Shown: positions 11,712 through 39,969, counted from the stretch's first letter. The stretch is DNA of 64,000 nt from Candidatus Melainabacteria bacterium 17Bon1m (GCA_032128875.1 JAVLKG010000004.1:1-64000); one strand, 5' to 3'. Notes: a model not told the origin generated them from the letters alone. Program-made: numbers and translations.

Positions 11712-12080
11712 GGTTGATTTCAGTTGCAGACAAAAACAGCATGCATTCCCGCATACATTAGTTGCGATCTAAAATGGTCAATGATCTTGAAAGCGCCATA
11801 TCCAACGCTAATAAGGCGCCCAAAAAAGCTCGAAGTAATTCGCTCAAAATGAGCGCAAAGTTTCCCGGAACCGAAGTAGGATTGCTTCTTGATATTGATT
11901 TCGCAAACGAATTGCGATTTTTGCCACCTGTGCATCGATCCAGGCGAAGTAAATTGCTCATCTTTTAAAAGCGAATTGCGCAAAAGCCATGCAGCACAGC
12001 TATTCCCGGCAAAACGAATTACCTTGTTTCTCCTGCCTCCGTCCTACGGGCTCCACGAAATTCGCCACTTATGGGGGAGC
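11712..12080 (+). repeat. Dispersed ~360 bp non-coding element, copy A1 (oriT-like)
   Basis: Starts GGTTGATTTC; TTATGGGG begins 357 bp later; gap-free homology with 16853-17222; variant core TCTCCTGCC at 12029. Confidence 0.8.
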
Positions 12081-12158
12081 TGGCTAGAGCGTCAAATACT
12101 TAGCACAATTTGCTCGCCAATAATAAGAGGCGGGAAAATCCTCGTGCGAAAGAATGCT

Positions 12159-13070
12159 CTAGTCATTGCCTTCAGCGTTGCTCTTAAGATTTCGTGCAAT
12201 CCACTTACTTTTCCCATTCGAGGAAATCAACAAAGCGTCAAATTCCTGCCCAACCGTTGAGGAACTGGTCTTATGAGTTATTGCAATCATTTTGGATACA
12301 AGTTTCAAAGCTTTTCCTTCTGACCAATCAGCAGTGAAGTCAGCTTTACTTATTGCCTTTGCGACATCACTTTGCGCATTTTTGTTCATATAGTCTGACA
12401 ACGGCTGCGCCTCACCATAGACCCGGGCACCAAGAACATCTTCCCTCAAAGCCTTATTTCGATCGGCGGATTCGGCTCTATAAATTTCTATCTCCACTAC
12501 CTCTGCAGGCTTTCTTGTGATTGGGAAATGGACGATCAAAGTTGTTAAAACTGGTCGTTCAATTGTGTTTAGGAGTTCTAGGTCTCGGCCATTGGGGAGC
12601 AACTGAAGTGCTCTATTGCGTTCATTGAACAAAAGTTGCGCTAAGCTCACAACTTGAGCGTCGCTTAGGTTCTGTGCCTTGTCACGCTGCTGAGTTGAAA
12701 GAAAATTGCTTGCAGTCTTATTAGCGTCAAACAAAATGTCTGAGCTGTCATCAACTTTGTATCCCACTACGCGTGGTGCGCCATGAGACGCTATTGCGAA
12801 GGCCTCATTTGCCAGCAAGACTTTGTCAGCTGTTTGTACTCCGGATCTGGTCTTTGAGGTAAGCAGCCTATCAGCTGCGACGATGACACCTTTGTTGCAC
12901 GGCATTATGACAATGACAGTTCCCAGCAGAAGGTCTCCAGAATTCGTTGATGCAAGTGTGTGAGTGCAAGACATTGTGACCAAAGTGGTAAGGGCGGATA
13001 TCTTGGACAGGTTTTGTTGCTTGACCCAGAGGTTTAGTCTAACCGCTTTTGTCCACCCTAATTTAAACAC
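12159..13070 (-). CDS. Proteasome-beta/Ntn-hydrolase-like protein, possibly exported
   Basis: G|TVIVIMPCNKGVIVAADR pattern after a leader; C-terminal TVG; true start may lie downstream. Confidence 0.55.
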   Translation of the reverse strand: MFKLGWTKAVRLNLWVKQQNLSKISALTTLVTMSCTHTLASTNSGDLLLGTVIVIMPCNKGVIVAADRLLTSKTRSGVQTADKVLLANEAFAIASHGAPRVVGYKVDDSSDILFDANKTASNFLSTQQRDKAQNLSDAQVVSLAQLLFNERNRALQLLPNGRDLELLNTIERPVLTTLIVHFPITRKPAEVVEIEIYRAESADRNKALREDVLGARVYGEAQPLSDYMNKNAQSDVAKAISKADFTADWSEGKALKLVSKMIAITHKTSSSTVGQEFDALLISSNGKSKWIARNLKSNAEGND

Positions 13071-13106
13071 TTGCGAGGTCCTCCAAAAGCAGATCAGCGA
13101 CCTGTT

Positions 13107-15071
13107 TTAGTCCTGATCGCTAGCAGCGAGCACTGCTATGTGTCGCTTGTCGGGACGAAGGCACACAATCCCCAAATCCCACGCGATGTTATAAAACCAT
13201 TTTGATGTCGATGAGAGAGACCACCAACTGCTCTGTTTTACGGCATTAAGAACATCGTCGACGGTGCCGCTCGCTCCAACGCCGGTCAGCGCACCTAAGG
13301 ATTGCCAGGCGGCTAATCGTCCGTACGCGCCACCTTCGCCTCCGGAGTATGCACCGCCGCTCGACGCAACTCCAAACATCATCTCAAAAATCCTGTCTGC
13401 TGGAACGGGTTTGAATTCCACTTCGCGTGGCGTCATGCCAGCTATGCATTCAAGTTGCAGCTTCAACAATTGCTTTGTAGATAGGTCAGTCGGAGAAATT
13501 GCTGAAGAAATTTCGAACAGTTTTGACTCAGACTTTCCATTGGAACGTTTTTTCCATGACTGAACACATCTAACTGCGGCTTCCTCGTTGAACAGAATCG
13601 GCACCGCGGTGAATGGATTTTCTGGAGCAGTTCGTGAGGGCTGCTTGTCTAATGTTCCTTGTACCGAGGTGGACGGTAAGTGTTTGACGCTCCTGCCAGC
13701 GTTGTAGATGGGAAATGAAACTAAACCTTCAATGTCCGTTCTATGAAGCGGAAGCCAAGCAAGCGGGTTGTTCTCTTTCTTGAGTTTTTGCCAAAATGTA
13801 CATATCTGCTCATCCTTGTCGTAGTCAGCACCTCTTACTACTGATTCCTGAACGAGAGGAGTAATCACTTCTGGGAATTTGGCGTCTGCTAAGTGGCTGA
13901 TGATGAATGCTTTTGTTTCCTCTGATGTGTGCGTCGAAGCAATCATTGACGCTGCATGCAATGGGCTGCGTTTTGCTTCGAGTGTTAGCTCAATTCCAGC
14001 ATCGATCTGCTCTACTTTATTCGACTGACAGAGTTCATCGATAACGTCTACGACTGGCACAAAGTGAACGCCATTCGATGCTGGAGCTTCAGCACCTATT
14101 CTCTTCATGTCATAGTTGCGCGACTTTGCGATTTTCTTGACGTTATCCAATTTTGTCTTTTGCAAGAAATCGGTGGGCAGTGAAGGCGGCCTTTGCAGCG
14201 ATTCCACAGGAACTCCCAGTGGTGTACAAGCGAGCAGATGATGCTGCGACGGAAGTTCGACAGAGTATGAAACGAACAATCTCTTTCCTGAAATGCTTGC
14301 CATAGTACCGATTTTTTGGAATAGCATTTCAAACTCATTCAGGAATTTTCCTGGCATCTGCAAATAATAGCCACCATATTCTCTCGGATTTGCGGCGTTT
14401 AGCTGAGGCCAGTTTGCGGGCCATGTGACAGACTTCCTTCCTTCTCCTTCGTTTAGGGTGACATCAAAATATTCTGGGACCCATGGATGCGCGTCCTTGG
14501 GTTCGAAATAGTGTGTTTCATACCAGGCTCCGAGAGCGCTTTGCGGTATTTCACCACTACCATAGAGCGGACTCTGACACTTAACTGCAGGTAAAGAAGT
14601 TGAATATGATGCTGTTTTACCATTGCCAGTTTTCTGGATTGAAACAGGACCGTACATCGCTAGCTGACGCATAACTTTGCCGTCGTCAAAGATGATTTGG
14701 CTGTTGCGTTGATCTTCTGCTTCCGTAAAAGCAAAATTGGTCTTCACGTCAGGCAATTCAGCGACGATTTTTTCGAATGTCTGCCATGCTTCACCATCTA
14801 CGGTGCCAGTAATAAAACCACCAGATTGTTTCTTCCGATCTCTGTAAATGACTGTTCGATTTGAATACAAGGCAAAACGCACAGGAGTGCCTTCTTGCTC
14901 TGAGTAGTCTTCAGACTCAAAAAGCCCGAGTATTGGCTTTGGGTCATTGGACTTCTGGCAATTGGTAGTTAGTTCAGAACTTTGCACGATTGCTCCAACA
15001 TGCCAGCTTAAAATCAGGAGAATTAGGGTGTGTGTGATCTGCTTGTCGCGGCTTCGCTTTCTTATATGCAT
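13107..15071 (-). CDS. Exported protein with C-terminal DUF6183-like domain
   Basis: Signal-like N-terminus; GGAYSGGEGGAYGRLAAWQSL and WDLGIVCLRPD...VLAASDQD. Confidence 0.65.
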   Translation of the reverse strand: MHIRKRSRDKQITHTLILLILSWHVGAIVQSSELTTNCQKSNDPKPILGLFESEDYSEQEGTPVRFALYSNRTVIYRDRKKQSGGFITGTVDGEAWQTFEKIVAELPDVKTNFAFTEAEDQRNSQIIFDDGKVMRQLAMYGPVSIQKTGNGKTASYSTSLPAVKCQSPLYGSGEIPQSALGAWYETHYFEPKDAHPWVPEYFDVTLNEGEGRKSVTWPANWPQLNAANPREYGGYYLQMPGKFLNEFEMLFQKIGTMASISGKRLFVSYSVELPSQHHLLACTPLGVPVESLQRPPSLPTDFLQKTKLDNVKKIAKSRNYDMKRIGAEAPASNGVHFVPVVDVIDELCQSNKVEQIDAGIELTLEAKRSPLHAASMIASTHTSEETKAFIISHLADAKFPEVITPLVQESVVRGADYDKDEQICTFWQKLKKENNPLAWLPLHRTDIEGLVSFPIYNAGRSVKHLPSTSVQGTLDKQPSRTAPENPFTAVPILFNEEAAVRCVQSWKKRSNGKSESKLFEISSAISPTDLSTKQLLKLQLECIAGMTPREVEFKPVPADRIFEMMFGVASSGGAYSGGEGGAYGRLAAWQSLGALTGVGASGTVDDVLNAVKQSSWWSLSSTSKWFYNIAWDLGIVCLRPDKRHIAVLAASDQD

Positions 15072-15130
15072 CTTGATTGACTTGGCTGGATAATAGTTTC
15101 ATTGTTACTGTGCCTGCAAGGAGAAGAAGT

Positions 15131-15670
15131 GGGTGATTTCGGCAAGATTGAGACACATCACTGAAACTAGCATTCGTTAGTAGCCATCTACATTGCCGCA
15201 TGTTCGTCAACAGGACATATTGAGAAACGCTCAGGCGCGCAAAAATGGGTTAATGGGCGCCTGTGAAAATGCAGATGGCCGGATCAGATGTGGCTCATGA
15301 TGCGGATTAACAACCTGATTTTCGAGGGGAATGCCTTAAAGACTCCACTGGTTCTAGAGAATGGACATTGGGCACCCCTTTCCTTTTTTTTGAGAACCCC
15401 TTAAAGGGTACACAGGCGCATCGATACGGGAATTTGGCGCCTGTCGGCCTTTATCCTGCCTCCGGACCTTCGGGCTGAAGCAAAAATAGAGAATTATGGG
15501 GTACTTCCTCAGACATATAAGAATTCCCCCGCCCCCATCTGCCGCTCTGCCCGAATACCGTCGAACAAGGGTCCCGGAGTGAAGGTTGCCGGAGGCATCC
15601 GAAGGACTTGACCTTCGCTCCGGGTGTTCAGCGGTAGGCTGTTCGCCCGGCAGAATTGGCGGGGGCTACC
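15131..15670 (+). repeat. Dispersed non-coding element, copy B1 (oriT-like core plus 140 nt branched hairpin)
   Basis: GGGTGATTTC to TTATGGGG is 363 bp; TATCCTGCC at 15452; hairpin 15526-15665; homologous to 32812-33364. Confidence 0.85.
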
Positions 15671-15734
15671 GTAATTGCCCTGCTCCGGCCATGCACATAT
15701 TTTGAGTGGTAAACGATAAGACTGAAATCTTGTC

Positions 15735-16703
15735 CTACTTGCCGAATTTCCAAGCATTTAGCAGAATTCGACTTTCGCCAGAGAATCTCCCATCAGTGAA
15801 GATAAGTCCAGCCTGAGCGTCTAAATGCAAGTACCAGAAATGTCCAGGCAGTTTGAATTGGTCTACCTCTTTTAGTTTTTCACGCACTGAGAGTATGCAC
15901 ACATGAGTTGGATGATAGAGAGGGCAGGTACCGCAGAGTTTTTCTTTCACCACCCAAAGAAATTCGCCGCTGCTGTCGATGGCAAGGCGTGAGAATAGAA
16001 ATTCAAGATTGAATGTCTGCACATTGGAAGGGTCTTTCACAGATACTGAGCGCAGAATGTTTGTGGACTTACCAAATGCGTAGAAAAAATTTCCATTCAA
16101 TCGCTCTGGTGTTGCTTCCGACAACCACAGCGTTTCCGTCTTGACACACATCGCTGCGTCGTCGAAAAGTAATCCGGTTAGTATGTTCTCTCGCTTTCCC
16201 GAAAGCACATTCAATCTCCAAACACTTCCATCAACTCCGCAACACGCTAGGAGACTATCCGGAAAGATGTCCGGAAATAACGGTTCCCCTCGTCCAAAGT
16301 TGAAGCGTTGGACCTTAGATGTATTCAAGTCGTACAGTATAACTGCATCTTGTACCCCGCCTTTCATCGCCAATATATTGTCGAAACGCAAGGGTGAACC
16401 CATTAACTTTGGAACGCGAGTTTCCCACCGTTTTATTTCGGATAAGGATTTCGACGATAGCAAGAAGATTTTGCGATCAGTATTAGCGATAACCTCAGAG
16501 AAGTCTTTCGAAAAAGCAAGATCGTAAACGTGAGCTCTAGTGAGATAACTGGACCGCTCTTCCCCGGAGTCAATGTCCAATCTTGTAATTTTCATGCCTG
16601 CATACATTTGTGAGCCATTGAGAAAATAGACCGAACCTAATTCCGGTACAACGCGGGCGGTTCCACTTCCCTTGAATTCTTTGGTCCAAAGCGGAGTAGC
16701 CAT
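15735..16703 (-). CDS. Beta-rich (propeller-like) hypothetical protein, paralog 3
   Basis: VPELGSVYFLNGSQMYAGMKITRLD and LTRAHVYDLAFS nearly identical to paralog 2. Confidence 0.75.
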   Translation of the reverse strand: MATPLWTKEFKGSGTARVVPELGSVYFLNGSQMYAGMKITRLDIDSGEERSSYLTRAHVYDLAFSKDFSEVIANTDRKIFLLSSKSLSEIKRWETRVPKLMGSPLRFDNILAMKGGVQDAVILYDLNTSKVQRFNFGRGEPLFPDIFPDSLLACCGVDGSVWRLNVLSGKRENILTGLLFDDAAMCVKTETLWLSEATPERLNGNFFYAFGKSTNILRSVSVKDPSNVQTFNLEFLFSRLAIDSSGEFLWVVKEKLCGTCPLYHPTHVCILSVREKLKEVDQFKLPGHFWYLHLDAQAGLIFTDGRFSGESRILLNAWKFGK

Positions 16704-16852
16704 AGGAATGTAGTCCTCACTAAAACCGAACAGATCTACGAAATTGCACGCAGGGATCTCTAACTCCTATTAGTCCACGACAATCCTCTTCTTGAAACAA
16801 CTATCTGGCACCAGTAACTCGGATCGCTCTGCGATTTGAGATACAAATTTCA

Positions 16853-17222
16853 GGTTGATTTCGGCAAAGTTGAAAGAGGCGACTGGAACTCGCATTCATT
16901 AGTGAATATCCAAACAGGTCAACGGTTCTCAAAGCGCCATATCTGTTGGAAGTCAGGCGCTGAAAAACGTGCGAGGTAATGCGCGGAAGCTATGCGAAAA
17001 ATTTCGCTTAGCAGCAACCAGACTGTATTGAAACTCTGTTTTCGCAAACGAATTGCGATTTTTGCCAACTGTGCACCGATCTGGGCGAAGTAAATTGCGC
17101 TGCTTCAAAAAGCGAATTGCGCAAAAGCTATGCAGCACATGACTTTCCGTCAAGACGAATCACCCACTTTATCCTGCCTTCGTCCTGCGGACAAAGGCAA
17201 AATAGACAATTATGGGGTATCC
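16853..17222 (+). repeat. Dispersed ~360 bp non-coding element, copy A2 (oriT-like)
   Basis: GGTTGATTTC to TTATGGGG is 357 bp; TATCCTGCC at 17170. Confidence 0.8.
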
Positions 17223-17343
17223 TATGTCCACGCAGCTCAGTATCCCAGTTCAACAAGGAGCGCAAACTCTTCTTCCGAGCCGCCCTAAGAAAGTTTTGCG
17301 TTGTAAAAATGACTCAAGGAAACCTCTTTACTTTCACAACACT

Positions 17344-18234
17344 ATGAAAATTTTGTCGATTGATGGTGGAGCCCCCCTAATCCCGTACATTTTTTTGAAT
17401 GAGTTGGAGAAAAGAACTGGCAAGTCAATTCCGGAGCTTTTTCAATTGGTGGTCACAGTATCCACTGGAGCCTTCCCAGCCTTCTTCTTTACGCATCCAT
17501 CTCTGCGAAGCTCTCTTTCAGAAGTACAGCAACTTCAGATTTTGAGAGCCAGTTTTGCCAACAGAAATGCATTTAAAAATGAAGTAGAGAAAAACTTCTC
17601 AACGTATAGACTTAGAGATGTAGGTACGGACCTAGTGGTAGCTTGCTACGACGCGATGTCCCGAGACGAATTTCTCTTTCAAAGTAGAATTGCAAAAAAG
17701 CGAAGTGGATTTGACTACACTGTTAATCAGGTACTAAAGGCCTCGTGCGCGAAGCCGAGTGTTCTTGATCCATTTAAATTGAAACGAACTGACGGAACAG
17801 AGAGTTTGCTTCTGGACGGTGGAGTTTTGGGCAGCAATCCCGCAAACATCGCAAGTCGAGAAGCACGGTCGGTTTATGCCGAAGATAATCCGGTTATTGT
17901 TTCCGTTGGTACCGGATCAGTTGCGCGCGACACCTCAATGGTGAACCTCGAAATCAAAGATCCGCAATCTCTGATGCTTTTTACGCAGGCTGCTTCTGGA
18001 ACAGTAGGGAGTTTCGGTCCGCCAGAGTTTACCGCACTTGGTGCAACCACAGATGTAACTCTTTCAATTTTTCCGAATTCGAAATTTCGTTTTGACACTG
18101 AGTTGACATCACATGGTAAATCATTCTGGTACACGGACGACATTTTCGAAATGCAAAAAAAAGCGGCCAGAGCACTAATTGAACAACAAAGCGTCCGCTT
18201 AGATGAACTTTGTAAGAGTCTTGTCTCTGGATAG
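17344..18234 (+). CDS. Degenerate patatin-like phospholipase
   Basis: MKILSIDGGAP (GGGxRG loop lost), TVSTG, LLDGG, VSVGTG; ATG at 17344 preferred over 17212. Confidence 0.8.
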   Translation: MKILSIDGGAPLIPYIFLNELEKRTGKSIPELFQLVVTVSTGAFPAFFFTHPSLRSSLSEVQQLQILRASFANRNAFKNEVEKNFSTYRLRDVGTDLVVACYDAMSRDEFLFQSRIAKKRSGFDYTVNQVLKASCAKPSVLDPFKLKRTDGTESLLLDGGVLGSNPANIASREARSVYAEDNPVIVSVGTGSVARDTSMVNLEIKDPQSLMLFTQAASGTVGSFGPPEFTALGATTDVTLSIFPNSKFRFDTELTSHGKSFWYTDDIFEMQKKAARALIEQQSVRLDELCKSLVSG

Positions 18235-18239
18235 TAGTC

Positions 18240-19265
18240 ATGCCTGTTAGAAGAATCCTTTCGATAGACGGTGGCGGAGTGAGAGGAATTATTCCGGCAT
18301 TGATCCTTGCTTACATCGAGCAGAGAGCGGCACTTCCCATAACGACCTTGTTCGATACCATAGCCGGAACCTCTACGGGGGGAATAATCGCATTATGTCT
18401 CACCAAACCTAACCCTGATGGTTCACCATGTTATTCAGCTGCTCAGTGCGCTCAACTTTACGAGAAATCTGGACAAAAGATTTTTCCACCCTTTGATTTA
18501 GCACTACGAAAATTCCTTGCAATTCGTGCGTTTAAACCATTTGCATATTGTCCATCAGGTCTCGAAACTGTTGTTGCGGACTATCTGGGTGATACCTTAC
18601 TTAGTCAAGCAAGTTCTGACCTCTTAATTTACAGTGCTAGAGTTTTTCCTCCAGGGATTTTTACTTTTAAACGGTTCGAATCATTAGAGAATGAGGATGC
18701 TAACTTTGCGATGAAAGATATTGCACGTGCAACTTCTGCCGCATCTACATACTTTCCACCTGCCACCATCAAGAATAGATCAAATGCACATGAGTTTAAT
18801 CTGATCGATGGTGGAACTTTAGTCAACAATCCTGCGCTTCGTGCCTATTATGACTCCAAAACTCGATTTCCTGATCATGATGTGTTCGTTTTATCAGTGG
18901 GAACAGGAGCGGTTACACATAAAAATCAAATGAAGGCGCAGGACGGATTCACGTTGGCACCGCTCCTCGCAGCACGAAAATTGATATCGTTCCAAATGGA
19001 CGGGACAAGCAAGCAAGCGCACAGAGACCTTATGTCCATACTTCCAATCCAGCTGCATCAAAACGGCAACCAAGAACACAGACGATATTATCGAATCCAA
19101 TGTCGATTGGAGAGTGACGCGGAAGATTTAGATAACTCAGATCCGAAAAATTTGAAAAAACTTCGCAACTTGGCACAAGAGATGATTGATGACAGTCGCG
19201 ATGTTCTCGATTTTATCGCAATGAAATTGGTCGCTCTCCATTTAGCGCAACAGAACCATGAGTAA
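18240..19265 (+). CDS. Patatin-like phospholipase with intact catalytic motifs
   Basis: DGGGVRG, GTSTG, ATSAA, DGG..NNP, LSVGTG. Confidence 0.92.
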   Translation: MPVRRILSIDGGGVRGIIPALILAYIEQRAALPITTLFDTIAGTSTGGIIALCLTKPNPDGSPCYSAAQCAQLYEKSGQKIFPPFDLALRKFLAIRAFKPFAYCPSGLETVVADYLGDTLLSQASSDLLIYSARVFPPGIFTFKRFESLENEDANFAMKDIARATSAASTYFPPATIKNRSNAHEFNLIDGGTLVNNPALRAYYDSKTRFPDHDVFVLSVGTGAVTHKNQMKAQDGFTLAPLLAARKLISFQMDGTSKQAHRDLMSILPIQLHQNGNQEHRRYYRIQCRLESDAEDLDNSDPKNLKKLRNLAQEMIDDSRDVLDFIAMKLVALHLAQQNHE

Positions 19266-22200
19266 CGATGACGCTAGCGCCACATATCGAGGATATCGGA
19301 GGCAAGCCATTTATGCCTTGTTTCGCCTCTTTAGTGACAGTCTGCCGGACGGATGTGTAATCCAACCTGAGGGGACTGAGGACCTCGCAATTTTTGACAA
19401 TGCAGGTAAGCTAATTGAGATAGTTCAGGTAAAGGATCATACTGATAAACTTGCAGCCTCTAGTTTTAAGCCTTCGTTTTACGAAAGGGTATCGCCCTAT
19501 TGTGCACCTGATTCTTCAACAATTGTTCGCATAGCTACCTTCGGTCCAATTGGGCCAGATCTTCAAGGTGCTATATCCGGTGACCAGGTTGCTCGGTCTC
19601 GTGTTCTGAAAACGATTACCAACTATCTAAGCGAAAGGCACGCAACTGCGAATTTAGGCAAGGCTCAGAAGCGGCCTGATGTGCAAGCCAGTGAAATCAT
19701 TGCTCATATCGATGTGACGCCGGTAGCTGAGGTAGACCTTGTAAATACGATTCTTTCCACTCTTTCTAATACAGTCACAGGAGTCAGTCCGAAACAATCA
19801 TTTGAGTTTTTGATGTGGTGGCTGCTCACAGCGTCAGAAGCAAAATTGAAAATCAGTCGAAACAAAGCCATCGCTAAGATTCAGAGTATCGGGAAATTTT
19901 TGTCTCAACGAGCAGCTTATTATGACGAGTGGTACTCCACAATTGTGCCGATTGTACCCTCTGATGATTCAACGAGACGCGTTAATAATTTTGAAAATGA
20001 GTTTTATCGCGGAGGGCGAGTTAGTTTTGATCATATAGAGCTGGGACTAGATGTTCCACGGAACCGCTTCTTGAAAGATATCCATGACGCATTTAAGGAT
20101 AACAGTGTAGTTGTTATCCATAGTGCGTCTGGGCAAGGAAAGACTACTCTTTCATACAGATACGCAAAGGATTTCGCCGCTTCTGATTTTCGACTTGAGG
20201 TTTTGACTTCATCAGACCTTAGGCAAGCGAGAAGAATCGCACAGGCGTTGATAGGCCATGCAGAAGCAGTGGAAGTACCTACTTTGATATTTTTCGATGT
20301 AAGGCCGGGAGACATTCTATGGCTTGATGTTGTTAGAGAACTTGTATCAGTAGGTGGAATTAGAGTCCTAGTTTCGGTTCGTGAAGAGGATTGGAAGCGC
20401 ACTCGCATAAGCGCCGCCGACTTTTCTTTTGCTGAAGTCTCACTATCTTTGGAACAGGAAGAGGCAAAGGCTATTTATGATCGTTTGACCAAACGAGTTG
20501 CAAATGATCGGCATCTAGACTTTGAAGATGCTTGGAGTCAGTTTGGTGTCCGAAAGACTCTTTTTGAATTCGTGTACTTCATTACTCAAGAAGAATCTCT
20601 AGCGACAAGGATTTCCTCTCAAATCAGGGCGCTTCAAGATGAGGTAACAGTCGGGAAGAGAAGTAAAGGCGAGGTTGACTTGCTTCACCTCGTCGCAGTG
20701 GCGTCAGCTTATGAAGCTAGATTAGATCTGGCGAAACTTGTGGCTCACTGTAATCTGCCTTCTCCACAAAGAACGATTGAGAGATTTGACAATGAATACC
20801 TCATTCGTGTGTCTGTTGATGGAGCTAATGTCGAAGGGTATCATTCAATTCGTAGTGAAATAATTGCGAACAACTTAACCGACAAAGTAATCAGCCCATG
20901 GTCCAATGTTGCATCACAAGTCTTGCCGCTCATCTTAGAAGCTGATTTAAGCGGTTTCTTGCTTTGTGCATTCTCTCGACAACCTGAAGCGGCTAAAGTT
21001 TTAGTTCCTGCGTTGACGCATTTTCAACCATGCACTTGGATAGGTACTCTAAGTGTTGTTACTTCTCTAATGTGGAATGGGCTTAAGCTGTACGCAGAAC
21101 ACAACTCTTCATTACTGGATGAAATCTACGAGCAAGTGGACTCACGCTGGCATTTGACTTTGGACTGGGAATTGGGCCAAGCTCTCGGTAAAGACGGACT
21201 TAAGTTTTACGAGTCTATTGCAGAGGTCTCGGCTAGATTCAAAGGCGCTGTGGAGTATTCTCAAAAGGCTAAAGAGAGGCAGTCTGAAAAATGCAATGTA
21301 TTCGCAGATATGCAAACCTGGTTGGAAGGCTGCTCAAGGCTGCCTTCTGCTCCGAGTAACGCTCAAGATTTCACCGCAATGTCAGAGGTATTCTTTTGGC
21401 TTGGGCATTTAAAGATTAGGTCTACATTACAGGAAGCCATATCGGTAGACATCATTGAGTGTGCGCGTAACAAACTCTCTCTCTATTCATTTGGCGAATT
21501 TATTCGAGGCATTCGGGAATCCGCCAATGATGTTTATGGCGCCTGGCTTAAAGCTAACCGTACGGATTTTATTCACGAGTTAAGAAAGGAATCCGGAGTT
21601 CTCGCTCTGGACGAAACCACGGATGCAATCGTCGCTCATTTCATTATCGACTTCGACCGGCAATTTTCCTTACTTAGTTCTCGTGGAGTTTCGCCGAATA
21701 GTGCCAAAGCTACCATCCATGATTTAACGATTGAAAGAGTTACATTATTGAGCAACCTCTTTTCCAATAAAAAGCAATACGGTGCTGTTGGCTATGGTCA
21801 CAGAATTTCGCTTTTCCCACATTCTTGGGATGAAGCAAATAAGCCTGGTGTCTTATCGCAAAACTTGCATCCAAAATGGCCGTTGCTCTTTAATGCTTTA
21901 GCACGAGGGCGCGTGGAACTCAAATACCGCCCTGCAAATTGGGAACTGTACTTCCAACTACTTCAATTGTTGCGAGAAAATGTATTGAATGCATTCACTG
22001 ATTTGCGGCAATCGATAATGCCTAAGAACTTGGCACTGAACGTCGGCAAATTTCCACTTGCAAAAATTGAGAGTTGGGAGCAGTGCCGAAAGGAAGTAGG
22101 AAAGCAATTGCTGTTACCTAAAGTGTCAGTTGATGAGTGGGGATATGTTACTGAGACCGCTAGAGAAAACAATGAAGATCCTAGACTAGAGCGTTTCTCC

Positions 22201-23535
22201 GGTCTGCACCGCTTCATGCCCGTGCAAAAAGCCGTCGCTGAATACTCAAGATGTATCAGCAACTTCATGTCTCAGGCGAAGGACTCCTTGGTACTTGTTC
22301 CTCTGCTACGAAATGCCAAATCGGACTTAGAAAGAAGCAAGATTATTTCAAATGCATTGGAATATGACATTCATGTCGAGTCAATCAAATTGTCTGTGGT
22401 CAACGGATTTGATGCCTGCCTAGCAATTGAACAATTGCATACGGCAACAAAATATGTTTTTGGAAGTCAGCAAATGCCAGGAGCAGACTTAGATTTCTGT
22501 GAGCGTGAACGGAGAGAATTTACTACTTCAATGACTGCATGGAGTGTTTTCACAGATGCTGATATCAGCAATCAAATTGCAGAAAACTCTAGAAAGAAAA
22601 ACAAGCTACAGTGGAGAATTGCTCACAATGAAGTTGAGTTAGATGATTTACTGATTCCTACAAAGCGCCGTTTGAAAAACGCATTGCAGTCTCTTCGAAA
22701 GGAAGGTATCGATGCAAGTGTGCTTTCGGAAAGGCTTCTTTGGGATGACAAGTCTGCTCTGTGGATTACAGTCGACACTGTTCATCCAATTGCATCGCTA
22801 ATTGCTGCGAAAACCGTCTGGCACAAACTGGTCGAAGCATTTACGCCAGATCGCACTAAACTAATTCGCATGAGAGCCATAGATCTTTCATGGCAATCGA
22901 TAATTTTGATTCCGTTAGTCAAAGGAAAAAGTTTAGAGCGACATGCAATGTCGCGTTTCAAGTGTGTAACGTACTCAGAGCCAGGCGATTACGATCAAAA
23001 TCTATGGCAGTTGTTTCCAGAACGAGTGCCGGACGAGACCTGGCGTCAAATAGGACTGGACCAGTGGGAGTTGCCTCCAAAACGGAACACGTTTGAACAA
23101 CTAAAGGAAGTTTATAGTTCTTTAGTTCTGCATGTTGAACACATGGCAGACCTTTATCGTCTGTCTTCAAGAGAAGATGGGCTGGATGACTTTGGAACAT
23201 CCATTCTTCAAGACTACCTGAACGTTGAGCAAGCGCGTATTCAACCATTGGTTCAAGAGGTTTACGACATTTGGAATTCCTTGCTGAGAGATTTTTCTTC
23301 GCTAGACGAGGAAATACTTGAGAATAGTCCCAATATGTGTATGTGCATACTGGTTTTGGAGCGTCTGAAGGAGGCAATCTTACCTACGCTTGATTTTCAT
23401 GAACAATGTAGACTTTCGCTCGAAGAAATTAGCAACTGGTGTCAAAGGTTGACCGCAGGTCTAAATGATCTTGGGTTAGCATACTATTTGTGGATATCTG
23501 ATTCTCTCGGGTTTTCTGCGCCTCCAGAATACTAG
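19258..23535 (+). CDS. Nuclease-STAND NTPase-sensor protein (Avs-like), 1425 aa
   Basis: N-terminal ASATYRGY..Q...EGTED...QVK (Cap4/PD-(D/E)xK-like); Walker A SASGQGKT; Walker B LIFFD; long helical C-terminus. Confidence 0.75.
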   Translation: MSNDDASATYRGYRRQAIYALFRLFSDSLPDGCVIQPEGTEDLAIFDNAGKLIEIVQVKDHTDKLAASSFKPSFYERVSPYCAPDSSTIVRIATFGPIGPDLQGAISGDQVARSRVLKTITNYLSERHATANLGKAQKRPDVQASEIIAHIDVTPVAEVDLVNTILSTLSNTVTGVSPKQSFEFLMWWLLTASEAKLKISRNKAIAKIQSIGKFLSQRAAYYDEWYSTIVPIVPSDDSTRRVNNFENEFYRGGRVSFDHIELGLDVPRNRFLKDIHDAFKDNSVVVIHSASGQGKTTLSYRYAKDFAASDFRLEVLTSSDLRQARRIAQALIGHAEAVEVPTLIFFDVRPGDILWLDVVRELVSVGGIRVLVSVREEDWKRTRISAADFSFAEVSLSLEQEEAKAIYDRLTKRVANDRHLDFEDAWSQFGVRKTLFEFVYFITQEESLATRISSQIRALQDEVTVGKRSKGEVDLLHLVAVASAYEARLDLAKLVAHCNLPSPQRTIERFDNEYLIRVSVDGANVEGYHSIRSEIIANNLTDKVISPWSNVASQVLPLILEADLSGFLLCAFSRQPEAAKVLVPALTHFQPCTWIGTLSVVTSLMWNGLKLYAEHNSSLLDEIYEQVDSRWHLTLDWELGQALGKDGLKFYESIAEVSARFKGAVEYSQKAKERQSEKCNVFADMQTWLEGCSRLPSAPSNAQDFTAMSEVFFWLGHLKIRSTLQEAISVDIIECARNKLSLYSFGEFIRGIRESANDVYGAWLKANRTDFIHELRKESGVLALDETTDAIVAHFIIDFDRQFSLLSSRGVSPNSAKATIHDLTIERVTLLSNLFSNKKQYGAVGYGHRISLFPHSWDEANKPGVLSQNLHPKWPLLFNALARGRVELKYRPANWELYFQLLQLLRENVLNAFTDLRQSIMPKNLALNVGKFPLAKIESWEQCRKEVGKQLLLPKVSVDEWGYVTETARENNEDPRLERFSGLHRFMPVQKAVAEYSRCISNFMSQAKDSLVLVPLLRNAKSDLERSKIISNALEYDIHVESIKLSVVNGFDACLAIEQLHTATKYVFGSQQMPGADLDFCERERREFTTSMTAWSVFTDADISNQIAENSRKKNKLQWRIAHNEVELDDLLIPTKRRLKNALQSLRKEGIDASVLSERLLWDDKSALWITVDTVHPIASLIAAKTVWHKLVEAFTPDRTKLIRMRAIDLSWQSIILIPLVKGKSLERHAMSRFKCVTYSEPGDYDQNLWQLFPERVPDETWRQIGLDQWELPPKRNTFEQLKEVYSSLVLHVEHMADLYRLSSREDGLDDFGTSILQDYLNVEQARIQPLVQEVYDIWNSLLRDFSSLDEEILENSPNMCMCILVLERLKEAILPTLDFHEQCRLSLEEISNWCQRLTAGLNDLGLAYYLWISDSLGFSAPPEY

Positions 23536-23538
23536 CGT

Positions 23539-24366: not shown

Positions 24367-24420
24367 TGTTCTTTCCTCACTGCCTTCTTTGATGAATACT
24401 TTAGAATAGTTTGACTCTCA

Positions 24421-26031: not shown

Positions 26032-26240
26032 TAAGTTGAATGATGATGAGCAATGTAACTCGTTGTTGCTTCAACTGCATCGTATGTGATACCACTATCC
26101 TAGTTATGAACCAATTGATTTTTCGATGTATCAAAAAATAATGAGAGATAAGCATCTCTCTTTCTGATTCTTCTTGATTAACCTTCGCTAAATTTGACGC
26201 CAAGAAGGCCATCATTAGGCCATCTGGAAAAAGCGAAAGT

Positions 26241-27542
26241 TGACTGGCCCGAGACATAGGTTACACATTGTTCCGGACACATAGGTTACACATTTGGGCC
26301 AAACGGGTTGTCGAGGGGCTGCAATGTTTTTTTCCTCTAAGTCAACGTAGCCAAGATCATACTGCATAAAACTGACCAGCCATACGCCGTCATCAACCTC
26401 TTTGACGCCTACAGCTTGTCCAGCAAGGCTTCTAGTTAGATTGATTTTCTTTCGGTAAAGGCAGAGGCGGCCGCAATTTGTGACGTTTACTGTTTTGTCG
26501 TGAAACGGATAGTCGGGTTCAGGAAGACCGTTGTAGACCCGCGTGGATGGCTGATAGATTTCCGCTGGAAACTTCATTTCGATCCCTGCGTGTGGACGTT
26601 CGTTGTTGAACTCATCAATGAAAAGGTCAAACGTTGTTTGCTGTTGAAAAATGTTTGCACCAGCGGGTCTTGTAGTTTCCTTCTTGAGCGTTAAGTGCAT
26701 GCGTTCATGTCGGCCGTTTTGCTGTGGATGTCCAGGTTTGATTCGCTCAATACTGATGCCGAGTCTAAGCCACCAAACAGATAGTTTTGATAAATTGAAC
26801 AATCCGTTTGGAGAAGCGAATGGAACGCCATTGTCTGATCGAATCGCAGTCGGCATGCCTCTTTCTTTGAACAGTCTTTCAAAGGCGGTTAATGCAAATT
26901 GTTCTTTAGTCGATTCTTGTGCTTCGCAAAGTAAGAGATATCGTGAGGCGTAATCCGTGACGGTGAGCGGATAACAGTATTGCTTGTTTCCTAGTTGGAA
27001 TTCACTTTTGTAGTCAGTGCACCAGAGATCATTTGGGCGAATGCCATCAGACAAGGGCGTGCCCTGTGCACGTTGTCTCCGCTTTCGTCCTTTTGAAACT
27101 AGATCATGTCTGTCAAGAACAGTATGAATAGTGCTGATGGCTGGAATTTTGATTTCGTGTGGAAGTGCGCGAAGAAGTTTCTCTCGAATCTTTCTTGCAC
27201 CCCAATTCGGTTTTTCCTTTTTTGCGGCAACAATTGCAGCCTCAACTTGAGGAGGCATCGCATTTGCGTATCGAACAGGTCTTCGGCTTCTATCGCTCAA
27301 TCCTTCGAAGCCGCATTCTTCGTAGCGCTCGACAATCTTGTAGCCGGTCTTGCGCGAAATTCCGAATTCACGGCACAAAGAACTCATGTCTTCGTCGTCC
27401 TTGTGGCGAATGACAAAGCGTATTCTTTCGTCCAAAACAGAACACTCCTTCCACGGCATCCACTCTCGCCTCCCGCTGGAAAGCGCAAAAGTGTATACCT
27501 TGTGTCCGGAACGTTCTGTAACCCATCTGTCAGGGCCAGACA
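26241..27542 (-). mobile_element. IS481-family insertion sequence
   Basis: Imperfect inverted repeats TGACTGGCCC...GGTTACA...TTCCGGACAC versus the reverse complement of 27490-27542; GT on both flanks. Confidence 0.88.
26286..27459 (-). CDS. IS481 transposase with a +1 slip near the C-terminus
   Basis: HTH (LCREFGISRKTGYK), WCTDYK / RSDNG / NGRHER DDE core; with A6 instead of A7 at 26327-26333 it ends EEKTLQPLDNPFGPNV* at 26286. Confidence 0.9.
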
Positions 27543-27600
27543 GTCTGAAAACCTAGCCGACAGCGGGATTTGAACCCGCGACCTACGGTTTACGAATCCG
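27543..27600 (-). repeat. att core: duplicated 3' half of tRNA-Thr plus flank
   Basis: GTCTGAAAACCTAGCCGACAG.GGGATTTGAACCC.CGACCTACGGTTTACGAA matches 39886-39939. Confidence 0.92.
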
Positions 27601-27815
27601 CTCACAGAGCCAGTTTTCCTCCTTTGAAGATGTTGCGCGGTTGTTGGTCGTGCTATACAATGCCTGATGAGGACTGCGTCTTCGCGTGTTGTGTTTGTTG
27701 ATCAAAGTTGATCGAAGTTTACGCGAATTGATGCTAAAAAGGCCTCCATTAGGCTTCCACAATTTTACACCAGACCTACGGTTAATCGCACCAAAGGTCG
27801 GAGAACCAACATCAA

Positions 27816-29021
27816 ATGAAAGCGGAGAAGGTCAATTTTAATAAGCGAAAGATAGAGTCCATGACTATTCCGGAAGGAGTGGCAAAGAAGGAGTTCTATG
27901 ATTCCATCCAACGGGGTCTCATTTTGAGATTGTCGAAGGGCGGCAGTAAGAGTTTTTACTTTAGAAAGACTGTCCAATACAAAATCGAGCGAGTTTTCCT
28001 CGGGCGCTTCCCTGAGATGAGTGTCGAGCAAGCCCGTGATGCCGCTGCTGCGATTTTGGCAGACGTGGGTAAGGGAATTAGCCCTCAAGCTGAAAAACTC
28101 GCCTCCAAGGACGAGCCAACCCTCGGAGAATTGTTCGAGAACTATCTTGAAGGTCACGCCCGCATACGCTGCGTTCGAGTGGCTGATATGGAGAAGGATT
28201 TCGTCCGATATGTTACTGATTGGCGTGACCGTAAATGGTCATCAATAAAGAGAGCTGATGTTCAAAACAGAGTCAATCATGTACGACAAAACAATGGACC
28301 TGCCGCAGCTAATCACATCATCATTTTAATGAAAGCAATGACGAGTTGGAATATTCGGAATGGATATATCGAAGGCGATAATCCCTGGCTGCCCATTAAG
28401 CAGTTCAAGATTCAATCCCGAGAGCGATTTCTCAGGCCGAACGAGATGGCAAATTTCTTTGCTGCTTTGAAAAAGGTCCCTGACGAAATGATGCGAGACT
28501 ACTTTGAGATTAGTCTCTATACCGGCGCTCGTAAATCAAACGTTCTTGCAATGCGCTGGGAAGATGTTGATCTGGAACTTGCAATCTGGCGAATTCCAAT
28601 GACTAAAAACAAGGAGTCGCATCTTGTTCCGCTTACCGGACCTGCTGTTGAAATTCTTCGCCGGCGCTCGGAATCCAGTAAGACTGGCTGGGTTTTTCCT
28701 GGTCGAATAAAGGACAGTCATCTCGTAGAACCTAAGAGAGTTTGGTACAAGCTGATCAAAGATGCTGGAGTAGAAGATCTCAGGGTTCATGATCTCCGTC
28801 GGACTCTGGCGAGCTACATGGCGATAACCAATCACAGCTTGCCGATCATTGCGAGAGCGCTTGGGCACAAGTCCACCCAAGCAACGCAAATCTATTCACG
28901 CTTGACGCAAGATCCCGTCAGAAACGCCATGGATTTGGCGATTGCGCAAATTCACCTCCTGGCAGAAAGCAAGGAAGAAGCAATTGCTGTAGATGCTGAA
29001 GTTAGCGATTCCTGTGCTTAG
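27816..29021 (+). CDS. Tyrosine integrase (P4-like, with arm-binding domain)
   Basis: TGAR, HDLRRT, LGH and TQIY catalytic motifs; N-terminal GLILRLSKGGSKSF...LGRFPEMSVEQAR. Confidence 0.95.
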   Translation: MKAEKVNFNKRKIESMTIPEGVAKKEFYDSIQRGLILRLSKGGSKSFYFRKTVQYKIERVFLGRFPEMSVEQARDAAAAILADVGKGISPQAEKLASKDEPTLGELFENYLEGHARIRCVRVADMEKDFVRYVTDWRDRKWSSIKRADVQNRVNHVRQNNGPAAANHIIILMKAMTSWNIRNGYIEGDNPWLPIKQFKIQSRERFLRPNEMANFFAALKKVPDEMMRDYFEISLYTGARKSNVLAMRWEDVDLELAIWRIPMTKNKESHLVPLTGPAVEILRRRSESSKTGWVFPGRIKDSHLVEPKRVWYKLIKDAGVEDLRVHDLRRTLASYMAITNHSLPIIARALGHKSTQATQIYSRLTQDPVRNAMDLAIAQIHLLAESKEEAIAVDAEVSDSCA

Positions 29022-29066
29022 CCTAGTACAATTGAGCTTACTGTCTCTTCGTATCAGACCGCACCA

Positions 29067-29861: not shown

Positions 29862-29935
29862 AGATGGTTTGAAAAATTCTGAGGAATTCGTCCTAAAGTT
29901 TCAGTAGCAATGATTGTGTTCGAGCTTATGAGGAA

Positions 29936-30634: not shown

Positions 30635-30711
30635 AGCATTGATACGCATGCTACATGCAATGTCCAATTGGCTCCAGCAAAATGTATGCTGCGAGCGCTA
30701 AAGAGCAAAAC

Positions 30712-31800
30712 TCACAGAAACATTTCCTGCGGATCAAGTTGCCTGCTCAAGCTCAGGAGATACTTGGAGAAACTCTCCCGAACAATTTCCACCTCACCGC
30801 GCGAACATTGTGTGTGCAATTTCTCGCAAAACCTTCTATAGGATTCAAACGAGAGGAATTGCTCCAAATTAGTGCTGAGAAAGTCTGGAAACTCTGACGT
30901 AAGCGATTTCAGATAAAGGTCCCACTCCGTGTTGGAAGCTTCATAGAGTAAGTCAAAGCGATCATCATAAGTGCAGGCATCGACTGCTTTCCAAATTTCG
31001 CCCAGCTTCTCCTGTAAATCTTTGGCGATGTCTAATTCTACTTCGTAGTCGTTTGCAATGCTCACCAGAAGCATTGTAAAGAATCCGAGAGCTTCTTCTA
31101 AAGCACGTTCGTTAGTTAGTACTTTGTAAATGACCGTCTCTTCAAAAGTACATCTCTCATCTTGTTTGAAAAGAAGCAATAGGAGAGTATAAGTTTCCGC
31201 GATTCGTTCTTCCGAAAAGGAAGTCAAATAATAGTCGCGATTATCACCTGCTGCTTCAACAATCTGTTTCAAGATTGAGCGGCTACCCATCTGAATGCGT
31301 TGCTTGGTCTCATCTCCAAAGTTGAGATCGAGCATTCCCCATAGATCGAAAAAGAAGTCAGAACTCAACAGAAAAACGAAGTTGTCTGTCAAGGAGCCAT
31401 TGATTTTCAACGGTCTCTCTTTCCACGGCTTTCTATGTGTTAATTCCAGGCGAGTCCATATTCTATTGGAAATCTCTGCCTTCCATTCCGGTGGCAGTAT
31501 ATGGTGAAATCGCCCATCCCGCCCTCTGAGGTCTTCTATGCGATCAATGAAGGCGTCTCTGTGATTTTTGTGCAATTCCTTCATTGGTCCATTGGCTAGC
31601 TGTGATGAGACACGAGTGGAAAATGGTCCGACGTATGCGGCTTGAATGAAGATCCACAGATCCTCAGGATGATCTGATAATGCCGAAACCTTTTCAATCG
31701 ACCACTTATTCTTTTCATATTTACGGGAGTTGACGTCAGCTGTGATCGCTGTACGCCAGGCTTCTATCAAAGTATCTAGTTCTCTCTCTTCCATCATCAC
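30712..31800 (-). CDS. Hypothetical protein with DUF6869-like N-terminus
   Basis: HPEDLW...LANGPMKEL...FIDRIE. Confidence 0.55.
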   Translation of the reverse strand: MMMEERELDTLIEAWRTAITADVNSRKYEKNKWSIEKVSALSDHPEDLWIFIQAAYVGPFSTRVSSQLANGPMKELHKNHRDAFIDRIEDLRGRDGRFHHILPPEWKAEISNRIWTRLELTHRKPWKERPLKINGSLTDNFVFLLSSDFFFDLWGMLDLNFGDETKQRIQMGSRSILKQIVEAAGDNRDYYLTSFSEERIAETYTLLLLLFKQDERCTFEETVIYKVLTNERALEEALGFFTMLLVSIANDYEVELDIAKDLQEKLGEIWKAVDACTYDDRFDLLYEASNTEWDLYLKSLTSEFPDFLSTNLEQFLSFESYRRFCEKLHTQCSRGEVEIVRESFSKYLLSLSRQLDPQEMFL

Positions 31801-31858
31801 TTCCTGCGTAGCTGTCGCAAGCGCCGTCCAAAACCAATGCAGATAACCTCAGCTGTCT

Positions 31859-32734
31859 TTACCATTGAAGTGCCTCGGCGGTCGGCGCCATTTCTTTGAA
31901 TGTCGAGTCTCTAAAATCGTAGAGTAAGCGCGCCTTTTCTATTTCATACGGCGGTTCATTCTTCGAATTCGGAGTACATCTGAAAATTTGTCCCTCTCGC
32001 GCAAAGAGCAAATCACCGGATTTATCGACGTTTGCCCAATCGAAACGACCTAGAAAAGAGTCATCGCCCGTTTTGCTCTCGTGGAGATAGTAGTCTGTCG
32101 TAGTGGCACTTCCGCCGTTTTCAACGAAACCTAGAATGCGCATTTCCAATTCATAACGACCAAGAGATTCAATTGGTTTGCGGTAGATTTGCGGTGATGC
32201 GAACTTCTGGTACCCACTAGAAATGCCCTTATCCACAAGAGACCACCCATCTAATGTGAGCGCTTTGTGTTCGTGAAACTCTTCATCCTTTGATAAGGGA
32301 ACTACTCTGATATGTCCAGGCAAGGGATTTTTTGGTCCCAAAATCCAGGAATGATAGGAGATCTTTATCTGTGATTCAGATGCAAAGTAACCGCCGCCGT
32401 CAGAGCATCCGCAAACTCTCCACAAATTTATAGCGGTCAAGAATGGTGGCTTGCTAACAATGAGAAAAGAGCCCTTATTCTCGCTTTTGTACTGGTGCTT
32501 TTCACCTATGTAAATGAGCTTTTCCCCATTTGGAGAAAGTGCCGCCATGCGCTCATAAATACGTCCCTTAAGCCATTGACCGGGCTCAAAGGTATCATTC
32601 CAGGTATCCCATCTATAAATCTGAACTAGCTTTGATGGACCCCGCCTAAAAACAACACCCCATGGCCCCTCACTTGCGAGCAGCGCATACAGCCTTACAG
32701 ATGGTTGCGGGTTAGCGACTTTTGCGGCGCCCAT
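31859..32734 (-). CDS. Hypothetical protein, beta-rich
   Basis: RBS GAGGAGG; VFRRGPSK...GQWLKGRIYER...LSPNG. Confidence 0.75.
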   Translation of the reverse strand: MGAAKVANPQPSVRLYALLASEGPWGVVFRRGPSKLVQIYRWDTWNDTFEPGQWLKGRIYERMAALSPNGEKLIYIGEKHQYKSENKGSFLIVSKPPFLTAINLWRVCGCSDGGGYFASESQIKISYHSWILGPKNPLPGHIRVVPLSKDEEFHEHKALTLDGWSLVDKGISSGYQKFASPQIYRKPIESLGRYELEMRILGFVENGGSATTTDYYLHESKTGDDSFLGRFDWANVDKSGDLLFAREGQIFRCTPNSKNEPPYEIEKARLLYDFRDSTFKEMAPTAEALQW

Positions 32735-32811
32735 TTTTTCACCTCCTCACCTTCCAGCTTACAAGAGCCCTGGTCGAAACATCAGAATGGATTGAACTTA
32801 TCCGCGTTGCG

Positions 32812-33364
32812 GGTTGATTTCGGCAGAATTTAGGTTCACCATTGAGACAAGCATTCGTTAGTAGCAATCCAGATTCGTGCAGGTACATCAATGCGCCATA
32901 TTGAAGAACCGACAGGTGCGCAAAAATTGCCAATGGGCACCTGTAAAAAAGCAATTTTGGAGATCAAAAGTGGCTCGTGATGCTGATTCATGACATGATT
33001 TTGGAAGGGAATGCCTTTAAGCTGCCACTGGGCCCGATTGATTCGTATTCGGCGCCCCTCTCCTTTTTTTTGAGCACCCCTATTAAGAGCCATGGGCGCA
33101 CCGATACGAGAAATCGGCGCCTTTGGCCTTTATCCTGCCTCCGGACCTACGGGCAAAGGCAAAAATGGATAATTATGGGGTACCTGCTCAAATTTTCGCT
33201 CCGAAATCATATGAGAAATCCCCCGCCCCCATCTGCCGCTCTGCCCGAATACCGTCGAGCATGGGTCCCGGAGTGAAGGTTGCCGGAGGCATCCGAAGGA
33301 CTCGACCTTCGCTCTGGGTGTTCGGCGGTAGGCTGTTTGCCCGGCAGAATTAGCGGGGGCTACC
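32812..33364 (+). repeat. Dispersed non-coding element, copy B2 (oriT-like core plus 140 nt branched hairpin)
   Basis: GGTTGATTTC to TTATGGGG is 361 bp; TATCCTGCC at 33131; hairpin 33220-33359. Confidence 0.85.

Positions 33365-39897: not shown

Positions 39898-39969
<72 letters not shown>

Follow-up and report, generated by a model that had tools for sequence, protein, structure and literature searches.

How can a stretch of DNA without a relaxase gene carry several elements that look like origins of conjugative transfer (oriTs)? This question is raised by a 64,000-nucleotide (nt) stretch from Candidatus Melainabacteria bacterium 17Bon1m (GCA_032128875.1, JAVLKG010000004.1), in which four elements of ~365 nt with a nick-site-like core lie in the same orientation. 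The whole stretch, referred to below as the window, is C4:1-64000, the start of contig C4 of the host genome G000 (7.55 Mb, 35 contigs, 93% complete; C1, C2, C17 and C27 are other contigs of this assembly). The four elements are probably orphan oriTs that are acted on in trans and belong to a long (~365 bp) type native to the mobilisation modules of Obscuribacterales, the tRNA-Thr islands having retained the oriT-like elements without the accessory and relaxase genes.

The four non-coding copies, designated c1 to c4, had been predicted to start at 11712, 15131, 16853 and 32812 and to open with GG(T/G)TGATTTC, and all of these coordinates and motifs were confirmed. It was likewise confirmed that TTATGGGG begins 357, 363, 357 and 361 nt after the respective starts (at 12069, 15494, 17210 and 33173) and that TATCCTG is located at 15452, 17170 and 33131, with the variant TCTCCTG at 12029. 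All copies are on the + strand. Copy c1 occupies 11712..12078 and has a degenerate nick-like core, TTCTCCTGCC, at 12028-12037. The nick-like core TTATCCTGCC is present in c2 (15131..15503; core at 15451-15460), in c3 (16853..17219; core at 17169-17178) and in c4 (32812..33182; core at 33130-33139), the last of which lies inside an island bounded by attachment (att) sites.

Two subtypes, A (c1 and c3) and B (c2 and c4), were distinguished, which have unrelated middles and common 5′ and 3′ modules. The 5′ module consists of GGTTGATTTCGGCA..GCATTCRTTAGT..GCGCCATAT..AGGCGC..AAAAA, and the 3′ module consists of CTTTATCCTGCCT..hairpin..AAAAT..AATTATGGGGTA. Similarity within the subtypes was far above chance (76% identity over 369 nt, E 3.9e-64, for c4 and c2; 74% identity over 300 nt, E 1.1e-46, for c3 and c1), and the direct-repeat families D1, D2, D5 and D9 cover the four copies. 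Although overall identity between copies is just 61-80%, the core and the 5′ module are kept block-wise across species and unrelated cargo. Subtype B contains an imperfect GC-rich repeat whose end is ~16 nt before the putative nick, and none is obvious in subtype A. Subtype-A copies have a conserved + strand terminator-like hairpin followed by TTTTTGCCA (11901-11917 and 17042-17058), and at the matching place the subtype-B copies have a run of eight T. No consistent open reading frame (ORF) was found across the four copies, which rules out a coding reading of the element.

A profile search of the host genome (7.55 Mb) detected full copies only at the four sites in the window, together with a shorter, divergent fifth copy at C1:581414-581720. 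Beyond the host genome, at least five genomes of the genus carry relatives of the element, as does one long metagenome contig. A metagenome pattern scan gave 19 matching stretches, two of which were confirmed as elements by nhmmer (L026 and L032), the remainder being chance matches; in a genome-collection scan, three of the five matches were the same places as L009, L012 and L013.

Across 17 aligned copies, which come from 6 genomes and one metagenome contig, the best-conserved 10-column window was TTATCCTGCC (1.85 bits per column). It was intact in 14 copies, a single base being changed in c1, L012 and L013, so the conservation that had been expected of the TATCCTG core persisted in a deeper alignment. 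The MOBP nick consensus is (C/T)ATCCTG(C/T), and cleavage by RP4 TraI and VirD2 depends on ATCCTG (PMC3772185). Copies c2, c3 and c4 contain the corresponding core, TATCCTGC, as do 14 of the 17 aligned copies; c1 has TCTCCTGC. The bare 8-mer YATCCTGY was not enriched (6 occurrences in the window vs 6.45 expected; 620 in the genome, i.e., 5.3 per 64 kb). Only its conservation and the relaxase-linked extended motif give the core its weight. The 13-mer CTTTATCCTGCCT occurs 4 times in 7.55 Mb vs 0.23 expected, namely, in c2, c3 and c4 and on C27, and each of the six sites at which the 11-mer TTATCCTGCCT occurs in the genome belongs to an element copy or lies upstream of a relaxase (C27 and C17).

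Relaxase loci and the accessory gene

As the original prediction had stated, no relaxase was found in the window: the profiles PF03432, PF08751, PF03389 and PF01076 were unmatched, and tblastn with three relaxases gave matches only on C27 and C17. The mating-pore family PF03135 also had no match inside the window. When the search was extended to the host genome, two MobA/VirD2-type relaxase and coupling-protein loci were found outside the window, at C27:5048-8828 and C17:68256-72866. At each of these loci, a PF03432 relaxase gene is followed by a PF02534 coupling-protein gene and preceded by an ORF of ~140 amino acids (aa), which is NikA-like in the C17 locus. Relaxases of the TrwC, MobA/MobL and Mob_Pre types were not found in the host genome.

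The extended core was found upstream of both loci. At C27:8978(+), ~150 bp upstream of the operon and on the opposite strand, the sequence reads GCCTTTATCCTGCCT / GCCTTTATCCTGCCTTAC, with 15 nt identical to c2 and c4. At C17:66000(-), 2.7 kb upstream and in the same geometry as at C27, it reads TTTTATCCTGCCTTAC. Among 30 relaxase loci drawn from 61 genomes, TTTATCCTGC was located upstream on the opposite strand in 15 (8 genera), and in 11 of those it was 555-593 nt from the relaxase start. In the other orientation, TTATCCTG was found at none, and the C17 locus carries TTATCCGG there.

The C27 and C17 proteins score above the PF03432 cut-off, and the motifs H.NY.., H.LILSPG and H.NT....H.H, i.e., the N-terminal tyrosine motif and the HxH histidine cluster expected of an HUH relaxase, are kept in 17 relaxase sequences. 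Among named families, the closest to them are MOBP-type, namely, NCBIfam RlxS, MobP3 and MobP1, each matched below its cut-off, and another near relative is a VirD2-family relaxase on a plasmid typed MOBP/MPF_T. Identity to known MOBP relatives is 24-32% across the N-terminal ~190-240 aa. When YATCCTGY was sought upstream of the relaxase of a MOBP plasmid (L116), the sole match was inside the gene and was uninformative.

The element itself was also found beside mobilisation genes. On contig C196 of genome G003, a divergent element copy lies 275 bp upstream of an ORF of 139 aa, and directly after this ORF comes the gene of a 775-aa protein that shares N-terminal homology with the relaxase domains of C27 and C17. 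A search with the 139-aa protein revealed six close homologue loci, five of which have a full-length, divergent element ~280 bp upstream. The order of element, ~280 bp and divergent accessory gene (~130 aa) is present in L086, L088, L093, L094 and L095, with a relaxase gene next in L086; distant accessory homologues adjoin relaxases in three further genera. The linkage of homologues to mobilisation genes, by which the original prediction was to be judged, was thus found for the element (beside the accessory gene in five of six loci, in one case with a relaxase) and for the core (upstream of 15 of 30 relaxase loci). The element thus sits upstream of a mobilisation operon, where oriTs normally lie, and the copies in the window are probably versions that lost this operon.

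The N-terminal pattern of the ~130-aa accessory protein, which we take to be like that of ribbon-helix-helix repressors, was not confirmed by fold. The structural model, built from a 7-sequence alignment, had a mean pLDDT of 54.8, and because it was too poor for a fold search, the ribbon-helix-helix idea comes from the sequence pattern only.

These loci were compared with MOBP oriTs, i.e., those of RP4 TraI, of Ti VirD2 and the borders of transferred DNA (T-DNA), and of H. pylori Tfs4 VirD2, as described in PMC3772185. As in those systems, the core TATCCTGC is conserved and is located upstream of a MobA/VirD2-domain relaxase operon, on the strand that would make the mob genes enter last, and an accessory gene precedes the relaxase gene. 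Unlike in those systems, the relaxases are distant and below the NCBIfam MobP cut-offs, there is no uniform inverted repeat 5′ of the core, and the nick position and strand are putative.

A hairpin module on the nick-motif strand

The end point of 33364 given in the original prediction is the end of a second repeat, D3, which had been left undescribed. D3 is a branched hairpin of ~150 nt on the + strand, which carries the nick motif, and is located at 15514..15671, 11 nt after c2, and at 33208..33366, 26 nt after c4. It was found ~10-220 nt downstream of 12 element copies (c2, c4, the C1 copy and nine elsewhere), always on the same strand. D3 also lies 1.1 kb beyond the C27 motif, away from the mob genes and on the same strand. 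Of 13 more relaxase-linked leading regions that were extended, 3 contain it, likewise on the same strand. In relaxase loci without the long element, it occurs 1.1-2.3 kb from the motif.

Among 14 aligned copies of D3, 96.4% of cells were paired, and a compensatory change was found in 17 of 46 pairs. This pairing was matched by 0 of 500 shuffles, and slid controls reached 32-50%. The + strand gave 45 wobble pairs and 23 mismatches vs 4 and 64 for the complement. The D3 fold belongs to the nick-motif strand. Its tip is branched and contains invariant unpaired stretches. Against Rfam 15 at E<=1, the element and D3 gave two chance-level rows and nothing else.

In the leading regions of plasmids, Frpo and ssi elements serve as single-strand promoters or priming sites, as summarised in PMC11541004 (and in Masai & Arai 1997, cited there). 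D3 resembles them in being a long imperfect hairpin on the predicted transferred strand in the leading region, just past the nick motif and away from the mob genes, and in being kept by pairing and not by sequence alone. Unlike them, D3 has no -35/-10 consensus recognised in its stem in promoter scans, and its tip is branched; it is likened to them by architecture, not by sequence, and could act as RNA instead.

The fifth, shorter element copy of the host genome is also accompanied by D3 (C1:581414-581913; locus L053 3415-3915). On its predicted leading side are five co-directional minus-strand genes, the first of which encodes a RES-domain toxin homologue; if the + strand were transferred, that strand would be the template of these five genes. 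One D3 copy without an element is present at G000:C4:414946-415086, and no TTATCC(T/G)G was found in the ~6 kb upstream that was scanned (from C4:409000).

Proposed orphan transfer origins and competing explanations

If the four elements are orphan oriTs, a relaxase encoded elsewhere, on C27 or C17, would nick the + strand after ...ATCCTG, and this strand would leave 5′ to 3′ rightwards via a coupling protein and mating pore provided in trans. With such rightward transfer, the divergent-gene side would enter the recipient last, as the mob genes would in native loci. The native mob-gene orientation agrees with the definition of the leading region in the preprint of Ares-Arroyo et al. (bioRxiv 10.64898/2026.01.13.699239). 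The 12.3-kb integrase/att-bounded island that contains c4 would excise first and then represent a typical oriT-only mobilisable island. D3 would enter the recipient early as single-stranded DNA (ssDNA) and may serve there as a priming site or single-strand promoter, as Frpo/ssi elements do. The conserved, unstructured 5′ module may be the binding region for relaxosome accessory proteins.

Judging from the sequence, the islands would probably ride on conjugative elements located elsewhere in the same genome; nicking, transfer and the identity of the helper are predicted only. Candidate helpers are the C27 locus, with a core and D3 match, and the C17 locus, with a core match. Coupling proteins are present, evidence for a VirB4-type ATPase is weak, and the genome is 93% complete. 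The original idea of a relaxase-less oriT mimic was supported as regards an orphan oriT, but the elements appear to be orphan copies that are related by homology to a native long type of oriT, not convergent mimics. Similarly, the proposed hijacking of a helper gained relaxase loci with the extended motif in the same genome, although the likeness to them is limited to the 13-15-nt core and D3.

Several observations weigh against the elements being orphan oriTs. No cognate relaxase or accessory gene adjoins the copies in the window. Beyond the 13-15-nt core and D3, nhmmer detects no similarity between the orphan copies and the regions upstream of the C27 and C17 loci; therefore, we infer, and do not observe, recognition by those relaxases. 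The host genome has no close homologue of the 775-aa element-adjoining relaxase, and in its sole accessory homologue (C2:804224-804493; L089 1396-1797), the conserved N-terminal stretch of ~35 residues is missing and the C-terminus diverges. This homologue is probably a remnant. A weak nhmmer match (C2:801434-801496, E 0.0067) lies 3 kb from it, in a geometry that is not the usual one. A mating-pore ATPase is uncertain in the host genome: PF03135 was not found, and of two AAA_10 matches, one was above and one below the family cut-off. Co-occurrence in genus g1 was unremarkable, with relaxase homologues in 5 of 6 element-bearing genomes vs 4 of 7 element-free ones.

The core itself also provides points on this side. 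In c1 it is altered within the ATCCTG hexamer (CTCCTG), and L012 and L013 have ATCCGG. No uniform inverted repeat, of the kind present in RP4, was found 5′ of the motif, and hairpins just 3′ of the core had only a weak advantage over shuffles (mean z -0.8; 9 of 31 below -1.5). A hairpin adjoining the nick motif, which is present at most sites and barely beats shuffles, was therefore not used as support. For the segment with c1 to c3, neither an att site, in the form of a third att copy, nor another integrase was found; the window begins at a contig end. Finally, a motif that lies upstream of a divergent gene and points away from it also fits a promoter or leader.

This last point leads to the likeliest of the rival explanations, namely, that the divergent gene is served by the element as a promoter, operator or long leader cassette common to the copies. 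The conserved block, which reads GGCAGGATAAAG on the other strand, would be a promoter or a site for repressor binding. Such a cassette would have been inherited from mobilisation operons and would at present serve to express cargo genes, playing no part in DNA transfer. It would fit the position of all four window copies, 60-150 bp from a divergent gene start, the presence of a divergent gene beside ~10 of 13 copies overall, and the fixed distance of the motif upstream of the accessory/relaxase operon in relaxase loci, as well as the N-terminal pattern of the ~130-aa accessory protein, which is like that of ribbon-helix-helix repressors. Nevertheless, this explanation is unlikely. No sigma-70-like site was found in the same register across the four copies, and a leader would have to be 400-600 nt long without conserved structure. 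The two copies in L021 are head to head, and that in L022 has no divergent gene. A nick region is the simpler account of an invariant block of 10-13 nt that matches the MOBP nick consensus and has MOBP-like relaxases next to it, and a promoter or leader would leave D3 and its fold on the nick-motif strand unexplained.

The strong, + strand-specific covariation of D3 could also mean that the element and D3 together are a + sense non-coding RNA gene of ~550 nt transcribed away from the divergent gene. The co-orientation and non-coding nature of the copies would agree with this, as would the subtype-A terminator-like hairpin and T run described above. An RNA gene is, however, quite improbable, given that neither strand of the 365-nt part yields a consensus structure (0-5 pairs common to the 17 copies), that the Rfam search gave no match and that no conserved promoter precedes GGTTGATTTC. 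Furthermore, relaxase loci that lack the long element can also have D3, 1.1-2.3 kb away from the motif, and its G-T wobble pairs are equally compatible with a folded transferred DNA strand. Four runs labelled transcriptomic RNA-Seq gave, for window positions 11000-18000, contigs of 13-148 kb with even depth over genes and spacers and breaks at the D3 repeat only; these runs behave like genomic DNA and are uninformative on transcription.

It is very unlikely that the elements are inert remnants, i.e., mobilisation modules that decayed and stayed behind as integration and gene replacement recurred at the tRNA-Thr hotspot. The mutated core of c1, the truncated look of the accessory homologue of the host genome, the IS481-like and IS21-like elements that interrupt the region and the truncated or chimeric copies L010 and L011 would be in keeping with decay. 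Against this, the core and the 5′ module are kept block-wise in copies that differ widely in overall identity, species and cargo, and the D3 pairing is kept through compensatory changes; both features argue for continuing selection. Of the remaining candidates, a transposon or miniature inverted-repeat transposable element was rejected because no terminal inverted repeats or target duplications were seen by eye at the copy ends, a replication origin because no Rep gene is nearby, and a link to IS110 because it comes from a single transposase adjoining a single copy (L021).

Islands, cargo and possible segment mobility

Copy c4 lies in an island 12.3 kb long, which is bounded by a 59-nt, 95% identical copy of the tRNA-Thr 3′ half at 27542..27600 (left att junction) and by tRNA-Thr(CGT) at 39898..39969 (-), the 3′ half of which, at 39885-39943, forms the right att junction. 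A tyrosine integrase gene with Phage_integrase and Arm-DNA-bind_3 domains is located at its left end (27816..29021, +); an integrase and att sites were found for the c4 island only. A 71-nt island-end repeat at 26168..26238, 79% identical to 39814-39884, adjoins both att junctions, being separated from the tRNA half-copy at one of them only by an IS481-like insertion (26248-27534). The presence of the repeat at both junctions reveals a second, tandem island to the left, which carries c1 to c3 and has 26168..26238 as its right end; a search for its left end gave no result.

The genes that diverge from the four elements are mutually unrelated or only partly related. The c1 neighbour (11311..11631, -), 80 bp from the c1 start, encodes 106 aa with no Pfam family and is 79% identical to a gene beside a subtype-B copy in genome G007, which indicates that elements and cargo reassort. 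The c2 neighbour (13107..15071, -; 60 bp from the start) encodes a 654-aa DUF6183 protein. The c3 neighbour (15735..16703, -; 150 bp) encodes 322 aa of no family and is a paralogue of 10342-11310, and the c4 neighbour (31859..32734, -; 78 bp) encodes 291 aa of no family. On the other side, c1 and c2 have convergent genes, c3 has genes for two patatin-like phospholipases and a STAND NTPase, and c4 has a gene for a serpin-TPR protein. Cargo on both sides varies among loci (Kelch, VWA, WD40, HEAT, Sel1, Hsp70-like, AbiEii-like ATPase and IS110 transposase). The genes beside c3 form a defence-like operon that starts from the c3 end (17212-23535, +), in which the phospholipase genes come first (both patatin-like, matching PADLOC effector models at E down to 1e-56) and the STAND NTPase, of 1425 aa and LmuA-like at its N-terminus, comes next.

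Other relaxase-less islands provide a comparison. Vibrio mobilisable genomic islands reportedly copy the oriT of SXT, and oriT mimics are said to be known in staphylococci. The preprint of Ares-Arroyo et al. (bioRxiv 10.64898/2026.01.13.699239) describes iOriT genomic islands, which have an oriT only, depend on co-resident elements and are proposed to be common. The islands of the window are like these in their tRNA-gene site, integrase and att, oriT-like site, lack of relaxase and mating-pore genes, tandem integration, and defence-like and toxin genes by the origin; the same genome also has relaxase elements with the same nick core. They differ in belonging to an uncultured Obscuribacterales/Melainabacteria lineage and in having a ~365-bp oriT family with its own 5′ module, three more co-oriented copies in an adjacent segment without a recognisable att or integrase, and a likeness to the putative helpers limited to 13-15 nt and D3. 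Thus, the kind of system, oriT-only islands, is known, and what would be new is the candidate oriT family, the lineage, the array of four direct copies and the predicted leading-strand hairpin; the family may overlap the 52 new oriT families of the preprint.

The co-orientation of the copies raises the further idea of a relaxase-driven cassette system made of orphan origins and D3. Transfer can terminate at a second, directly repeated oriT. Relaxase-mediated integration into an oriT copy has been reported (PMC3264647). By analogy, transfer that runs from one nick site to the following one could free the segment between two origins as an ssDNA circle, which could re-insert at any resident copy. 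Strain-specific cargo arrays would result, integron-like but driven by an HUH relaxase. D3 would then be a new class of transferred-strand hairpin that primes synthesis or switches on transcription from the incoming ssDNA, and such transcription would run back through the origin into the gene just upstream. Taken as a whole, this scheme is unlikely. As with T-DNA borders and direct oriT repeats, directly oriented nick motifs bracket cargo segments of 1.7, 3.4 and 16 kb; unlike with T-DNA borders, separate movement of the segments is here an idea only. The cargo between c1 and c2 and between c2 and c3 was not found in 12 other genomes of the genus, one 113-nt match excepted, and such strain-specific cargo is neither for nor against separate mobility.

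If the elements are orphan oriTs, CTTTATCCTG/CCTTAC becomes a candidate nick consensus for a relaxase family across at least 8 genera, and the elements represent a long type of oriT that is maintained in the absence of its relaxase, with a strongly covarying, strand-specific module marking the leading side. We know of no oriT or nick site described for Obscuribacterales/Melainabacteria. Island mobility in this uncultured, non-photosynthetic sister lineage of cyanobacteria would become testable, and the recent idea of genomic islands as oriT-only hitchers would extend well past clinical Proteobacteria.

Some further features were observed. In L021 (1850-3876), the two head-to-head element copies are ~90 bp apart; the similarity of one of them stops right after TTATCCTGCCTT, and a gene for an IS110-family transposase lies 180 bp beyond. 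This break may reflect insertion or recombination at the nick core. The IS481-like element at 26248-27534 has 52-nt inverted repeats, and its insertion point is precisely where the island-end repeat would meet the tRNA half-copy. At the contig end, window positions 1-2487 are occupied by an IS21-like element (IstA/IstB, 52-nt inverted repeats). Just outside the islands, past the tRNA-Thr gene, there is a full-length poplar-1 RNA at 40760-40898 (+; Rfam RF03041, 134.7 bits vs a gathering score of 110.5). Lastly, 37-nt GC-rich palindromic repeats, GTGGGGGCGTGTTGCACACGCCC..., with the look of repetitive extragenic palindromic (REP) sequences were found, two in tandem at 47179-47252 and one 13 kb away at 60379-60415.

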